Of a DNA stretch of 64,000 nt, positions 35,012-40,545 are shown in pieces. Location: NCBI GenBank assembly GCA_964537735.1, contig CAZICL010000002.1:66573-130572 (forward strand), read 5' to 3'. Made by a program: the position numbers and the translations under genes. The notes beneath the pieces are model-generated. The model was not told the DNA's origin and did not search any database. It saw nothing but the letters and a program-made list of their open reading frames with translations. Source of the stretch: an uncultured Rhizobium sp. (GTDB taxonomy: Bacteria > Pseudomonadota > Alphaproteobacteria > Rickettsiales > UBA1997). Numbering within the stretch: the stretch's first letter is position 1; the number at the start of each line of letters is the position of its first letter.

Positions 35012-35878
35012 ATGGAACAAAAATTCGAGTCACTTAAAAAAGAAAATCCCGAGCAATTGGCGGAATATTTTGATTTCGTCAAGACTTCCGTTAAAGATGG
35101 CAGCTATTTTAAAGATGGTGTGAATTGGTATTTTTTTCGTTATGTAAATCCTTTTTGTGAAAGAACCGTTCTTTCTTTTGCCAGCATTGTAGCCTGCATC
35201 ATCTGTTATTGTTTGTTTGTTATGATCCAGGGTGCTTTTCCTTTGGTGCAAAAAGATCCGATTATTATTCGCTCCATTGACGAGTCGCGCTATTTTCCAA
35301 ATTTGATTCCGCTCAAACCTCACTCTACTGGTCCAGGATTTGAAGAATATGATCCTAAAATTGTCACAGTGGATGAGGCGATTGCAAAATATTTGGTTTC
35401 AGTTTATGTCACTAATCGTGAAGCTTATGATTTCAGCAAAGCCGAGGTTGAAGATGTGAATAATAAATTTAATCGTATCAGGAATACTTCCGTAGATAAG
35501 GAATACCGTGAGTTTCAGCTTTATATGAGTAAAGATAATCCAGACAGTCCGATTTTAAATTTTGGTCGTAATGTCGTTAAAACCATTGATATAACATCGG
35601 TTAAGTTTGTTAAGAAAGACGCCAAGGATTTTGCTAGTAAAGCTAAGGATTTTATTTCTGTGCAAATTCCCACCGATGCTGAAGTGCGTTTTATTGCAAC
35701 TACAAGTTCGGTTGATGATGAGGGAACAATCAAAACTCAAAGCCAGAATTATTTGGCAAAAATTAATTTTTCTTTTTCCGGCGCAATCAAGGTTAGTAAA
35801 AGAGATCGCGTCAGAGAGCAGGGTAAAAAGCCGTTAGATTTTATAGTCAAAAATTACAAATTGTACAAGGTGGAATAA
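35012..35878 (+). CDS. virB8: Type IV secretion system protein VirB8
   Basis: It has a single TM segment after the cytoplasmic N-terminus. YVTNREAYDF and the C-terminal PLDFIVKNYKLY resemble the VirB8 NPLGF.V..Y motif. It lies directly upstream of virB9. Confidence 0.7.
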   Translation: MEQKFESLKKENPEQLAEYFDFVKTSVKDGSYFKDGVNWYFFRYVNPFCERTVLSFASIVACIICYCLFVMIQGAFPLVQKDPIIIRSIDESRYFPNLIPLKPHSTGPGFEEYDPKIVTVDEAIAKYLVSVYVTNREAYDFSKAEVEDVNNKFNRIRNTSVDKEYREFQLYMSKDNPDSPILNFGRNVVKTIDITSVKFVKKDAKDFASKAKDFISVQIPTDAEVRFIATTSSVDDEGTIKTQSQNYLAKINFSFSGAIKVSKRDRVREQGKKPLDFIVKNYKLYKVE

Positions 35879-35880
35879 TA

Positions 35881-36741
35881 ATGAAGTTTTTTAAATTTTT
35901 TCTTTTGGTTTTTTTAATCGTTGCGCCTTGCTCTCTTAAAGCTGCCCAACAACCACGTTTTCTTGGTACGGAGAAAAAATTTAGAAGTTATGTTTATAAT
36001 CCCAATGATGTTTACCTTTATTTAGGACACTACACCTATCAAGGCTTTATCGAGTTTGAAGCTGGCGAAACTATCAGCACCATTTCTATGGGTGATCCAT
36101 CTTTGTGGATGTTTGAGCATTTGCAAAATCGTCTTTTTTTAAAACCAGTTGGCGAAGATAATTCTGAAACCAACATGACCGTAATCACCAACAAAAGAAT
36201 CTATCATTTTGAATTGATGGCCAAAGAGGCTAAAAGCATTAATGACAAAGATTTGATCTTCGTTGCCAAGTTTGTTTATCCTGATGAAAAAGATAAAAAT
36301 ATTGTTGAATTTGCTAGGTCGGAAAAATCTGATGAGCCTGATATGCACGATATCTCCATTTATAACTTTAATTACCAATATACCGGTGAGCCTTCAATTG
36401 CACCGCTTAAAGTCTTTGATAATGGTGAATTTACTTATTTCCAATTTCCGAAAAAGAATGCCGAAATTCCAGCAATTTTTACCGTCGATTCTGCTGGTTT
36501 TGAATCGCTGGTTAACTTTAGATCAGCTGGTCAATATATTATTGTTGAAAGAGTCTCGCCGCAATTCACCTTGCGCAATGGAGCTGAAATTGTCTGCGTT
36601 TACAACACAACTATGTTTAGTGACGGCAGATCCATTTCGGCTCCACGTTCTGCCAACGCGCCGGTGATGCCAAATAGTTTTGTTAACCCTCCTCCGTCTG
36701 GGGCAATCCCGCAGCAAATGATTCCTAGAAGGAATTATTAG
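35881..36741 (+). CDS. virB9: Type IV secretion system protein VirB9 (CagX/TrbG family)
   Basis: It has a signal peptide, RIYHFELM and EFTYFQFP motifs, and starts 3 nt after the virB8 stop. Confidence 0.8.
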   Translation: MKFFKFFLLVFLIVAPCSLKAAQQPRFLGTEKKFRSYVYNPNDVYLYLGHYTYQGFIEFEAGETISTISMGDPSLWMFEHLQNRLFLKPVGEDNSETNMTVITNKRIYHFELMAKEAKSINDKDLIFVAKFVYPDEKDKNIVEFARSEKSDEPDMHDISIYNFNYQYTGEPSIAPLKVFDNGEFTYFQFPKKNAEIPAIFTVDSAGFESLVNFRSAGQYIIVERVSPQFTLRNGAEIVCVYNTTMFSDGRSISAPRSANAPVMPNSFVNPPPSGAIPQQMIPRRNY

Positions 36742-36786: not shown

Positions 36787-39700
36787 ATGAGCGATATTTC
36801 AAATTACAACCATCAGCTTGCCGAAAAAAAATGGCAAAGAATCTGGGAAGAAAAAAGCATTTTCAAATTTGACGAAAATTCGACCAAAGAAAAATACTAT
36901 GTCTTGGAGATGTTTCCGTATCCTTCGGGGAAAATTCACATGGGGCATCTGCGCAACTACACAATTGGTGATGCCATTGCTCGCGTAAAAAAGTTGCAAG
37001 GTTTTAATGTTTTGCATCCGATGGGTTTTGATGCTTTTGGTTTGCCTGCCGAAAATGCAGCGCTTGAGCACAAAATTCATCCTGAAAATTGGACGCTAAA
37101 AAATATCGAACAAATGCGTGCCGAATTAAAATCGATTGGATTGTCAATTGATTGGAGTCGTGAAGTTGCAACCTGTTTGCCAAATTATTACAAACATGAG
37201 CAAAAAATTTTCCTCGATTTTGTTAAAAATGGCTTGGCTTACCAAAAAGAATCTTACGTCAATTGGGATCCAATTGATCAAACTGTATTGGCTAATGAAC
37301 AAGTCATTGACGGCCGTGGTTGGCGTTCTGGAGCATTGATTGAGAAGAAAAAGCTTAAGCAATGGTTTTTAAAAGTTTCCGATTTTTCGGAAGAACTTTT
37401 GGCTGAATTAAAAAATCTTCCCGGTTGGGATGAGCGTGTTTTAACCATGCAAGAAAAATGGATCGGCAAAAGTGAAGGGCAGATAATAAATTTTTCTTTG
37501 GTGGACAATTCTTCTAGCACCATTGCGGTTTACACAACTCGCCCAGACACTCTCTTTGGTGCATCTTTTGTAGCGATTTCTGCACATCATCCAATTGCGC
37601 TGGAACTAGCTAAAACCAATGCGGAAGCAAAGCAATTCATTGAAGAATGTAACGTCTCGGCTGTGGATGAACAAACTATCGAAAAGCAAGAAAAGCGTGG
37701 TTTTAAAACTGGTTTGCAGGTTGAACATCCGCTCGATCCAAATTGGAAACTTGATGTTTTTATCGCCAATTTTGTTTTAATGGAATATGGCACAGGAGCT
37801 GTATTTGGCTGTCCGGCACATGATGAGCGCGATTTTGAATTTGCTAAAAAATATAATCTGCCAATCAAACAAGTTGTAGAAAATTACGATAAATTTTTAG
37901 CGGAAACTGATTTGATCGATTATTCAAATCCAGCAATCCAATCAGTAATTTTAGCTCTTAAAGCCAAAGCAAAAGATGAAGTTGAATTGACTAAGTTAGC
38001 TTTCGAATTTGTGCGTGACGCAATTAACCACGCTATGGATGACAAAAAATATTTAAACGAAACACCATTTTTAAAGGCTAGCGAAGTTCTGTCAGCAAGA
38101 GTTGGATTCTGTTTTGGTAAAGCGATTTTATTGTGCGCGCTTTTACGCGGATTAAAAATTCGCTGTGGATTTTCCGATCAACTTTTGATGTTTGATGAAA
38201 ACATCTCTGAGCGCAAAATTATTCACACCGTCAACGCAGTTTATTTAAACCAAAAATGGCTACGCCTTGATGCAAGAGGCAACAAGCCAGAAGATGTTGA
38301 TGCGCAATTTAGTTTGGCTGAAGAAAAATTAGCTTATCCGGCACGTGCTGAATTCAATGAAATCGACAATCTTGGTATCTATGCCGAAATTTCTAAAAAC
38401 ACGCTGCACTTGCACAAAATCAGCAAGACTAACGCCGAGTTAATCGACAATCTTTTTGCCGAAATCAATCAAGTTGAAGCAGCAAATAGCGACGATGGCA
38501 AAATGATCAATTCGCAATTGCTTGATGGGCTTACTTGTGCGCAAGCTAAAGAAAAAGTTTTTGAAATTTTATCAGCAAAAAATAAGTCTGAGAAAAAAAT
38601 TAATTATCGCTTGCGTGACTGGGGAGTGAGTCGTCAACGCTATTGGGGTTGTCCAATTCCGATACTTTATTTAGAAGATGGATCTGTTGTGCCAGTGCCG
38701 GAAGATCAATTGCCGGTTGAGTTGCCTAAAGATGTTGAATTTACCGGTGCTGGAAATCCTTTGGCACTGCATCCAACTTGGAAATACACAACTTATAAAG
38801 GTCAGAAAGCAATTCGTGAAACCGATACTTTTGACACTTTTTTTGAAAGCTCGTGGTACTTCCTACGTTATATTTCCTTGAGAGAAGATAAGGCTTTTGA
38901 TCGTGAGTTGGCTAATAAATTTATGCCGGTTGATCAATATGTTGGCGGTGTTGAACATGCGGTTTTACATTTGCTTTACGCTAGGTTTTTTACTAAAGCT
39001 TTGAAAAAATGCGGTTATCTTGATGTCTCTGAGCCGTTTAAAAACCTGCTTACACAAGGTATGGTTTGTCATGCAACTTATAAAGATAAAGCAACCGGCA
39101 AATGGCTTTTCCCGGCACAAGCTTTGGAAAAAGCACCGCAAGATGTGATTATCGGCAGAAGTGAAAAAATGAGTAAGTCAAAGAAAAATACTGTTGAGCC
39201 GGCAAGAATTGTCGAAAGTTATGGCGCTGATGTGGCACGTCTGTTTATGCTTTCTGATTCACCGGCTTCGCGTGATTTGGAATGGTCTGAAAGCGGTATT
39301 GATGGTTGTTGGAAATATGTTAATCGTTTGTGGCGCTTGGTGGTGAGCAAGAATGTGGTCAATGGTGGCGATGAATCAATCATTAAACTTACTCACAAAA
39401 CCATTGCGGCTGTTGCAGAAGAATATGAAAAGATGGGCTTTAACCGCGCCATTGCCAAGATTCGTGAATTTTCCAATGCTTTAGAGAAAGTTGAAACTAT
39501 TCCCCAGGTGGCGTTGAAAAATCTAGTGATTTTGATTGCGCCGATTATGCCGCATTTGGCAGAAGAAATGTGGGCTCAGCTTGGATTTGAAGGTTTAGTT
39601 GTTGAACAAAAATTCCCCGAGTTTGATCCGGCTTTAATTTCTGAAGATGAAGTTGGTGTTGCAGTGCAGGTGGCTGGTAAGTTACGCGCTGTAATTCAAA

Positions 39701-39834
39701 TGCCCAAAGGATCAAGCAAAGAGCTGTTAGAAAAAGCTGCTTTTGAAAATGAAAATGTACAAAAATTCATCGAAGGCAAGGAAGTCAGAAAAATCATTAT
39801 CGTGCCGGACAAATTAGTAAATATCGTAGTTTAG
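36787..39834 (+). CDS. leuS: Leucine--tRNA ligase carrying an in-frame transglutaminase-like domain insertion of about 200 aa
   Basis: HMGH, the CP1 editing domain, [16 protein letters not shown] and KMSKS are all present. It is 1015 aa versus about 860 aa for typical bacterial LeuS. The insertion is at nt 37882-38480. Confidence 0.95.
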
Positions 39835-39864: not shown

Positions 39865-40545
39865 TTATCTTCGTAATGCATTATGTTGCGATTTTTCTGT
39901 GCTCAACGCTTCGCTGCCCAGCTTTACAAAAATTGTTGAAGGGGTTTGTTTTAGAAGCTGCATATTTTCCAAAGCCTGCTGCTCTGAAGCTGAACCTTTG
40001 ATTTTTTGCAATTCACTGACCAACGCTGGATTCATGGCGTTATTCAATCTCTCATCGCCTTTAATACTAAAAATCAGCAAATTAAGTGCGGCACGCATTA
40101 ATTCTGGACTATTATCAATCAAAATATCGCCGCTGCCTTTCAAGACCACATTGCAAAAATCATTGCCGCTCCAAGAGGTGTGGTTTACTTCCTTATGATT
40201 GGAGTTCTCTTTCAATTCTTTCTCAACCTTTTCCTTAAAAGTTTTGTGTAGTTTTTCAGTGAAACTATGACCAGATTCTTTTTCCATCACAGAGCAACTA
40301 ACATCTTTAATATCTGACCCCAGCAAGCGCATTTCGTTGAAAATATTATTCATATTTTGTTCCAGCTTGTCGGCATTGTCAAAATGCGCAATGGCAGCAA
40401 TTTGTTTGCTAGTATCTAGTAAGATTAAGATTTTACCATTTTTGGCATTTGGTGCAATAATTAGCCCATCTCCAACTGCCAGGCCATACTCGCCACGTAA
40501 GACGACTTCGGGATTTTTGTGCGCGATATTGCTTAAATCAATCAT
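39865..40545 (-). CDS. Hypothetical protein (226 aa), no family recognised
   Basis: A long ORF in a position convergent with leuS. Coding is plausible, but I can name no motif with confidence. Confidence 0.45.
   Translation of the reverse strand: MIDLSNIAHKNPEVVLRGEYGLAVGDGLIIAPNAKNGKILILLDTSKQIAAIAHFDNADKLEQNMNNIFNEMRLLGSDIKDVSCSVMEKESGHSFTEKLHKTFKEKVEKELKENSNHKEVNHTSWSGNDFCNVVLKGSGDILIDNSPELMRAALNLLIFSIKGDERLNNAMNPALVSELQKIKGSASEQQALENMQLLKQTPSTIFVKLGSEALSTEKSQHNALRR

Follow-up and report, generated by a model that had tools for sequence, protein, structure and literature searches.

Leucyl-tRNA synthetase (LeuRS) is encoded by leuS, and the copy of this gene on contig CAZICL010000002.1 of assembly GCA_964537735.1 (registered as an uncultured Rhizobium sp. 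and placed by GTDB in the Rickettsiales, Alphaproteobacteria) was found to contain, nested in frame within the CP1 editing domain, a complete additional domain, which is selectively maintained and is predicted to be a thiol enzyme with a transglutaminase fold. The gene is part of a stretch of 64,000 nucleotides, positions 66,573 to 130,572 of the forward strand of the contig, referred to here as the window. Aminoacyl-tRNA synthetases belong to the best-studied of all enzymes, and their CP1 editing domain is the textbook example of a module that is itself inserted and does not serve as a host; the window LeuRS amounts to a domain within a domain within a domain. In a survey of 2026, the LeuRS editing domain occurs exclusively as an insert and serves as the host in none of 213 insertion events (PMC13114784). 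The nested domain was captured once, in frame, by an ancestor common to a set of uncultured Rickettsiales-like Alphaproteobacteria from freshwater. The CP1 segment that bears it is an optional allele that persists beside the ancestral form, the two being swapped by homologous recombination down to about the species level.

The nested domain and its LeuRS host

The window leuS is a single uninterrupted open reading frame (ORF). The original prediction, made from the sequence alone, described a LeuS of 1015 residues with all canonical landmarks in collinear order. The product scores 1014.4 bits with the equivalog hidden Markov model TIGR00396 (leuS_bact; cut-off 548.4), the match being split in two with its first part ending at residue 374, and the closest solved LeuRS in alignment is that of N. 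gonorrhoeae (6q89; E 1.9e-239), collinear on both sides of the insert. The signatures HMGH, TTRPDT, AHDERD, NYRLRDWG and KMSKS are all present and fall on invariant columns of an alignment of 86 related LeuRS sequences, in which T250, T251, R252, T255, H345, D346, R348 and D349 are likewise invariant, in insert-bearing and insert-free proteins alike. The profile match, the HIGH and KMSKS motifs and the CP1 editing residues all identify a bacterial-type LeuRS. Since the presence of the insert makes no difference to the canonical editing residues, which are intact in both kinds of protein, the nested domain does not replace CP1 editing, and because all synthetic and editing motifs are retained, the window LeuRS presumably charges and proofreads tRNA-Leu as usual. 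The exact protein (P0121) is recorded on two contigs, from NCBI, ENA and Logan assemblies, and the GC content of the insert is continuous with the rest of leuS. No second leuS locus was found in any assembly among the 79 distinct loci kept, a result that distant paralogues would escape and for which the window shows 64 kb only.

As compared to canonical bacterial LeuRSs (E. coli 4aq7 and 4arc, N. gonorrhoeae 6q89 and T. thermophilus 1h3n), the window enzyme has all catalytic and editing landmarks, whereas its CP1 domain hosts a third domain where the solved enzymes have a 13-residue loop. Residues 8-373 of 6q89 correspond to residues 9-367 of the window protein and residues 387-877 to residues 566-1015, with about 198 residues replacing this loop. 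The replaced segment is a surface loop of 13-15 residues, and among insert-free LeuRSs the length of the host loop ranges from 5 to 45 residues. The borders as set by insert-free relatives (Table 1) lie within one or two residues of the interval 37882-38480 that had been proposed at the outset. The proposed location in the linker after CP1 did not hold: because the editing-domain model PF13603 is cut at position 146 of 185 (positions 2-146 being matched before the insert) and about 40 residues of LeuRS sequence, also conserved in insert-free relatives, follow it, the segment sits inside CP1.

The junctions of the insert read VVE/NYDKF and QVEA/ANSDDG, with neither a Cys, Ser or Thr at the start nor a His-Asn at the end, and they vary among species. 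After the window insert the native LP[YF]L motif is relaxed to AANS, and the CP1 helix that follows (residues 593-601) evolves differently in insert-bearing proteins. In the AlphaFold2 (AF2) model of the full-length protein, with a predicted local distance difference test score (pLDDT) of 86.5 and a predicted template modelling score (pTM) of 0.72, the insert is the best-modelled part (pLDDT 93-97), and since the junction blocks are themselves confident (pLDDT 94 and 87), the model suggests a domain that is fixed to LeuRS and not floppy. A 17-nt imperfect direct repeat, whose copies encode IKQVVE and INQVEA, brackets the insert. Its score exceeds all 100 shuffles in the window genome, while the flanking matches of 21 other genes with the insert lie at the shuffle maximum or close to it (the best, in L014, being 14/17), and the repeat is hence private to the window genome. 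Its interpretation as a target-site duplication or a relic of the original insertion was rejected on account of this restriction; in the window genome, it could allow a precise in-frame deletion.

Table 1. Features of the window leuS gene, with window coordinates; residues are numbered in the 1015-residue protein.
Feature	Position	Strand	Residues and remarks
leuS ORF, bacterial-type leucyl-tRNA synthetase with nested domain	36787..39834	+	1015 aa, uninterrupted frame
HIGH-type signature HMGH	36937..36948	+	51-54; H51, G53 and H54 invariant in 86 LeuRS sequences
CP1 editing domain, pre-insert part	37456..37884	+	224-366; PF13603 match 224-370
TTRPDT	37534-37551	+	250-255, within pre-insert CP1
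AHDERD	37816-37833	+	344-349, within pre-insert CP1
17-nt imperfect direct repeat (15/17)	left 37863..37879, right 38463-38479	+	exactly 600 nt apart, in frame, brackets the insert
Inserted segment with short linker	37885..38478	+	367-564; from insert-free relatives and 6q89 alignment
Pfam Transglut_core match	37963..38274	+	393-496
Cys442 codon tgt, predicted nucleophile, in GFCFGK	38110..38112	+	invariant family column; Cys in 46/49 LeuRS inserts
His480 codon cac	38224..38226	+	invariant family column; His in 49/49 LeuRS inserts
Asp495 codon gat	38269..38271	+	invariant family column; Asp in 49/49 LeuRS inserts
CP1 editing domain, post-insert part, ending in final CP1 helix	38479..38601	+	565-605
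NYRLRDWG, return to catalytic core	38602..38625	+	606-613
KMSKS loop	39166..39180	+	794-798

Concerning the identity of the insert, profile, predicted structure and fold search agree. The Pfam model PF01841 (Transglut_core; gathering score 23) matches with 34.4 bits in the whole protein and with 37.9 bits in the segment alone, where no other Pfam match besides a weak one to DUF553 was obtained. The AF2 model of the segment, built from the family alignment, is confident (pLDDT 93.6, pTM 0.92), and its comparison with the PDB by Foldseek gave the putative cysteine protease 3isr as the best match (E 4e-7), followed by TglA (9crn), fish and human transglutaminases (1g0d, FXIII/TG2/TG3), arylamine N-acetyltransferases (NAT; 4nv7), LapG and TgpA (6g49). 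All Foldseek matches are of the transglutaminase fold, with a probability of 1.00 for 3isr and the matches to TglA, transglutaminases, NAT and TgpA given a query with predicted coordinates, and they are remote (11-18% identity, template modelling score 0.4-0.5). Thus, the fold was recovered by PF01841, AF2 and Foldseek, and profile, triad and predicted fold alike place the domain in the transglutaminase-like superfamily. This bears out the Cys-His-Asp domain of the original prediction, whose three triad codons are exact and fall on the invariant Cys, His and Asp columns of the family. Homology of the segment to known editing or trans-editing modules (CP1, INS/YbaK, AlaX, DTD) was not found among the Pfam and fold matches.

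When 5.8 billion proteins were searched with just the segment as the query, more than 2,000 matches were obtained, nearly all of them free-standing proteins of about 205 residues with PF01841 as the sole domain, which are 42-52% identical over 80-99% of the query. Their named sources are Firmicutes, such as Lachnospiraceae, Clostridia, Paenibacillus, Gracilibacillus and Gottschalkia, and judged by sequence similarity the closest free-standing relatives of the insert are in this phylum. Against residues 11-201 of the 205-residue Lachnospiraceae protein P0023, the segment is 45% identical (E 2e-47), and since this alignment spans nearly all of P0023, essentially the whole gene was captured. P0023 and the 'transglutaminase-like protein' P0047 of Gottschalkia purinilytica represent the source family, to which the insert is collinear near full length and with which it shares the Cys, His and Asp residues and the FVRD, ASEV and DARGNK motifs, all of them among the 25 invariant columns of a 62-sequence family alignment (25/25 in the window copy). 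Unlike the free-standing proteins, the insert lacks a start and stop of its own and about the first 10 residues, is nested in LeuRS and has five positions near the active site fixed otherwise. A profile search of 1.84 billion cluster representatives gave 395 matches at E<=1e-30 and 1,293 at E<=1e-10. For the free-standing family, no solved structure was detected by a sequence search of the PDB and no NCBIfam model was found, and the PADLOC defence-system models match neither the insert nor P0023. A word-indexed search with the insert alone found a single LeuRS fragment despite the existence of at least 49 insert-bearing clusters, and its negatives are consequently weak.

Conservation extends beyond the triad (C76, H114 and D129 in segment numbering), since the other family-invariant polar residues S432, R454, Q465 and E525 are present in all 49 LeuRS inserts compared. 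Pairwise ratios of nonsynonymous to synonymous substitution rates (dN/dS) are 0.07-0.16 for the insert versus 0.04-0.09 for the rest of leuS; the insert is thus under purifying selection almost as strong as that on the host enzyme. Five positions that are 85-98% conserved in the free-standing family are fixed otherwise in the LeuRS clade, namely I to F441, A to G444, C to S463, Y to D464 and F to Y517, of which F441 adjoins the nucleophile Cys442. Such changes are what a shift of substrate or environment after capture would be expected to leave in the sequence.

Single capture and exchange as an optional allele

The original prediction had proposed a survey of how widely the insert is distributed. 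The insert is present in 49 of the 86 most similar LeuRS clusters aligned, a count that is a lower bound (at least 49 protein clusters, from NCBI, ENA, JGI and Logan assemblies), and, when one genome of each species was scanned, in 22 of the 65 relatives with a full-length LeuRS. All of these are metagenome-assembled genomes (MAGs) labelled Rickettsiales or Alphaproteobacteria, with isolate or contig names that point mostly to freshwater, and the largest contigs of two relatives measure 1.09 and 1.23 Mb. Recurrence in at least 49 clusters and in 22 other species genomes excludes an assembly chimera, an outcome that had been named as one that would overturn the finding. Some insert-bearing LeuRSs (P0131, P0143) are named by NCBI just 'class I tRNA ligase family protein', and the insert may be what halts their naming by the pipeline.

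In trees that include the free-standing family, the LeuRS inserts form one clade in 50/50 bootstraps, and there was thus a single capture. The divergence of the inserts tracks that of the LeuRS backbone (r=0.70), and in none of the pairs do divergent hosts carry near-identical inserts, so that recent horizontal spread of the insert as the main process is unsupported. At the same time, insert-bearing and insert-free LeuRSs are thoroughly intermixed on the backbone tree, for which the Fitch minimum is 20 changes. Sister pairs of the two kinds recur with bootstrap support of 77-100%, as in P0145/P0213 (100%), P0153/P0204 (98%), P0154/P0227 (96%), P0171/(P0142, P0144) (95%) and P0137/P0173 (82%, within a clade of 100%). 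The insert tree also disagrees with that of the backbone at several supported nodes, which shows that some recombinational transfer has occurred.

The patchy distribution could also be ascribed to independent de novo deletions, a possibility that was rejected. The loop [DE]SxGAxLP[YF]LEDG is common to insert-free alleles from throughout the tree, with L565 in 35/37 and P566 in 36/37 of them, and this motif is relaxed in insert-bearing alleles; its common presence in insert-free alleles means that they are not independent deletions. Furthermore, in close pairs with and without the insert, the 85 columns around the site are less similar than the distal backbone (79% versus 97%, 61% versus 89% and 62% versus 90% identity). 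The same is seen at the DNA level in L090, which bears the insert, and L091, which does not: both have the gene order nfu, MoCF, virB8, virB9, leuS and are 95-99% identical on both sides, and their similarity is lost only in a stretch that starts about 40 nt before the insert and ends about 70 nt after it. The two alleles thus differ by a bounded replacement tract, which argues against deletion as well. Another pair, L092 and L093 (about 90% identical), differs by a clean indel. As near-identical strains differ by a bounded swap, the insert is not obligatory, and homologous recombination is the means by which it moves.

Possible function of the nested domain

Tentatively, and by way of sequence, model and analogy, we favour the possibility that the domain is an accessory thiol acyl-hydrolase or acyl-transferase acting on a leucine-like acyl compound handled by LeuRS, which would provide an extra clean-up or immunity step. 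Cys442 would attack the acyl group, with His480 and Asp495 serving as the relay, and as the substrate one would expect a small acyl compound derived from an amino acid, which LeuRS binds or releases. The candidates are leucine look-alikes that have been mis-activated or mischarged, the near-cognate amino acid set free by editing, Leu-tRNA that is N-blocked and an inhibitor mimicking leucyl-adenylate. The domain would thereby add an optional clean-up or immunity step beside the editing site, leaving aminoacylation itself unchanged. If it indeed acts on acyl compounds bound or released by LeuRS, it would exemplify a type of quality control in translation, or of immunity to inhibitors, that is new, and would point to a function for the large free-standing family, which is uncharacterised. 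Natural controls exist in nearly identical strains that differ in having the insert, in lineages that lack the nucleophilic Cys and in a lineage whose loop carries a GNAT domain instead.

Two observations that involve GNAT acetyltransferases count in favour of this role. The first is the LeuRS of the MAG Rickettsiales Co_bin_67 (L071; CBFIDI010000001.1), a protein of 1066 residues, which carries a GNAT domain (Acetyltransf_3; Pfam E 7e-25) at residues ~365-565, in the same CP1 loop. The closest solved relatives of this GNAT are 3fbu, SpeG and RimJ. A search with the GNAT-LeuRS segment in the database of 5.8 billion proteins recovered LeuRS flanks only, making the variant a singleton. The similarity at its N-terminal junction is largely that of the N-terminus of the GNAT itself, and the C-terminal junction matches native LeuRS residues; the proposal that the GNAT replaced the transglutaminase core within a pre-existing insert was dropped as unproven. 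The second observation concerns the free-standing family, in which fusions to GNAT predominate. About one third of the 150 best family representatives are multidomain, with GNAT Acetyltransf_1 as the commonest partner (at least 18/51, in either order), followed by SAM methyltransferase, DHFR, class-III aminotransferase, CN-hydrolase, isochorismatase, NUDIX, P5C reductase, DSP phosphatase and Sel1 repeats. Since these partners are mostly small-molecule enzymes, they point to an amine or acyl chemistry of the family on small molecules rather than on proteins. Examples of fused members are P0242, P0245, P0276, P0251, P0301, P0338, P0253 and P0285. With its many fusions, the free-standing family, an uncharacterised one, deserves to be studied in its own right.

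A combination of a class-I editing aminoacyl-tRNA synthetase (aaRS) with a small acyl-transfer domain is known from NCBIfam NF040702 ('isoleucine--tRNA ligase, N-acetyltransferase domain-containing') and recurs in L071, there in the very same CP1 loop. Both differ from the window insert in having a GNAT fold, which uses acyl-CoA, as opposed to a thiol triad, and no published mechanism for a GNAT-containing isoleucyl-tRNA synthetase (IleRS) or LeuRS was found in the literature. What is already known, therefore, are aaRSs with extra enzyme domains, such as the GNAT-containing IleRS, and what is new is a transglutaminase-fold enzyme in CP1. The author of the original prediction knew of no described LeuS with such a module, and a literature search likewise found no paper on a transglutaminase-like domain in this or any other aaRS. 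The architecture is not confined to the window genome, being a polymorphic allele across the clade, and the sequences are already in public databases with automatic Pfam labels, although without a specific name.

A functional analogy is offered by small acyl-transfer or hydrolase enzymes and LeuRS variants that shield aaRSs from adenylate look-alikes. The GNATs RimL and MccE acetylate aminoacyl-adenylate mimics that poison aaRSs, and do so broadly, and some of these mimics are cleaved by the peptidase MccF (PMC3817062). LeuRS is the target of the adenylate mimic TM84, and AgnB2 is a self-immunity LeuRS against agrocin 84/TM84 (PMC5059758). MccE, RimL, MccF and AgnB2 are separate proteins, unlike the nested domain, which moreover is not homologous to the serine peptidase MccF. 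The analogy with MccE, RimL, MccF and AgnB2 can be taken as a lead for the favoured role. We know of no adenylate-mimic toxin for these bacteria.

A broader proposal, for which the chances appear low, is that the variable CP1 loop is a docking port for interchangeable acyl-transfer enzymes, with the transglutaminase-fold domain here and the GNAT in the relative intercepting what the synthetic or editing site handles. What they intercept would be a near-cognate amino acid upon its release, an aminoacyl-tRNA that is mischarged or N-blocked, or a toxin that mimics the adenylate. If so, a strain-variable third layer of quality control or antibiotic immunity would be built into an aaRS, and a first functional handle would be gained on a family whose uncharacterised cluster representatives number more than 1,000.

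Several findings weigh against a LeuRS-linked acyl-compound role. The nucleophile is lost in 3 of the 49 clusters with the domain retained (C to A in P0142 and P0149, C to G in P0208), and the FVRD and DARGNK motifs are eroded in these clusters too. Near-identical strains exist without the insert. The free-standing family is promiscuous in its fusions, the partners being unrelated small enzymes, and free-standing homologues in five genomes have neither a conserved neighbourhood nor a T-box or other leader RNA. An aaRS gene does lie near the homologue in two of these five genomes (hisS/aspS and glyS), which was treated as a coincidence. Given the promiscuous fusions and the unconserved neighbourhood, a function independent of LeuRS is still plausible. 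Finally, the host loop is naturally variable in length, and a permissive loop alone could explain two different inserts at this place.

Several of these findings favour, as the main rival, an enzyme that hitch-hikes in LeuRS, an explanation that we regard as rather unlikely and nevertheless serious. The domain would carry out the same small-molecule housekeeping or detoxifying reaction as its free-standing relatives, unrelated to LeuRS, and the permissive loop of an essential, constitutively expressed gene would just give it expression and protection from loss. A family that is mostly stand-alone and otherwise fused to many unrelated enzymes, an unremarkable neighbourhood, a tolerant loop and an insert that is dispensable between near-identical strains are all in line with this. 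Against it speak the fact that mid-domain insertion is far rarer than end-to-end fusion, with the editing domain never counted as a host in the survey cited above (PMC13114784), the presence of a second acyl-transfer enzyme, the GNAT, in the same loop of another lineage, and the residues beside the nucleophile, which changed and were then fixed after capture. Even as a mere passenger, the domain would provide a clean natural case of whole-domain insertion tolerance in an essential enzyme and of an accessory domain as a recombining allele.

That the domain is a non-catalytic appendage, i.e. a structural, tRNA-contacting, regulatory or protein-docking module with a relic triad, is improbable. 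Its retention in the three Cys-less clusters and the altered evolution of the CP1 helix 593-601 are compatible with it, and the purifying selection on the insert may in part reflect the need to fold without harming an essential host protein. The inserts of these three clusters look, by their sequences, like dead-enzyme versions that are still retained. However, the nucleophile is kept in all other clusters, His480, Asp495 (Table 1) and the other family-invariant polar residues are kept in every one, and the erosion of motifs is concentrated in the Cys-less lineages, which contrasts with their conservation elsewhere and suggests that selection acts on catalysis in the Cys-bearing inserts.

Still less probable is a protein-directed activity, by which the domain would cleave, deamidate or, as a transglutaminase, cross-link proteins of the bacterium or of a host, the 'effector-like' moonlighting considered in the original prediction. 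The nearest solved folds do include putative cysteine proteases, LapG and true transglutaminases, and in this Rickettsiales-like organism virB8 and virB9 lie directly upstream of leuS. These structural matches are remote, as given above, and the domain resides within a cytosolic housekeeping enzyme of 1015 residues with no evident secretion signal, its family is fused to small-molecule enzymes and not to protein-targeting modules, and the order virB8-virB9-leuS is found beside insert-free leuS as well. An effector role for the domain finds no support.

There is very little likelihood that the segment is a selfish mobile insertion, that is, an intein-like or homing element spreading into empty leuS alleles and periodically lost. 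Like inteins and other in-frame mobile insertions, it occupies in frame one conserved site of an essential gene, is patchily distributed and has precise empty alleles, with a conserved LP[YF]LEDG in the empty sites, sharp-bordered recombinational swaps and an insert tree that conflicts with the host tree. Unlike inteins, it lacks Hint and endonuclease domains (no intein or Hint match to Pfam at E<=1 in the window LeuRS) and splice-junction residues, and is expected to remain in the mature protein. In addition, its junction sequences are poorly conserved, its divergence tracks that of the host with no near-identical inserts in divergent hosts, the 17-nt flanking repeat is private to the window genome, and ordinary homologous recombination among related strains suffices for the pattern. 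An intein or mobile element was accordingly rejected, in line with the earlier reading of the segment as an in-frame domain insertion and not a self-splicing element. An artefact, in the form of an assembly chimera or a disrupted leuS pseudogene, has a negligible probability: the assembly is of the metagenome type and several related MAGs have contig breaks inside leuS, but the ORF is intact, with dN/dS ~0.1 and a GC content continuous with the gene, and the same architecture recurs in at least 49 clusters from four sources (NCBI, ENA, JGI and Logan), on contigs of up to 1.2 Mb.

Neighbouring genes and further length variation

Directly upstream of leuS, the window contains virB8 and virB9/CagX (35012-36741), and the order nfu, MoCF-like, virB8, virB9, leuS is kept in relatives with and without the insert (L090-L093). 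A search of Rfam around leuS gave nothing credible. Just downstream of leuS and convergent with it is an ORF of 226 residues (39865-40545, minus strand), which has no Pfam or PADLOC match, and elsewhere in the window two ORFs of 2021 residues (15929-21994, minus strand) and 686 residues (9104-11164, plus strand) are likewise without a Pfam match.

Within the insert, the three Cys-less clusters (P0142, P0149, P0208) read GFAFGK or AFGFGK at the nucleophile motif, have lost R410 in two of three cases, have A496 changed to P in all three and carry deletions in the GNKPEDV loop. P0158 (1093 residues) has about 70 extra residues in the insert region, representing a secondary insertion, and L015/P0231 has about 22 extra residues, which in L015 stand right before the catalytic Cys (…ANCCQENEYLPNAKAVNGAFCYGK). 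Other length-variable spots in the LeuRS clade are located near window residues 242, 655, 859 and 903 (L028, L039, L047, L059, P0205). The extra residues amount to 16-52 near residue 242 of CP1 and to 12-41 in the anticodon-binding region, none of them with a Pfam domain. In P0205 (985 residues), a seemingly much larger extra segment early in CP1, also without a Pfam domain, is indicated by the Pfam offset only. At the start of another contig (L037:1-120), upstream of a partial leuS, there is a short tandem repeat, one frame of which reads PPI*GGASRRVSATMGGV* twice.

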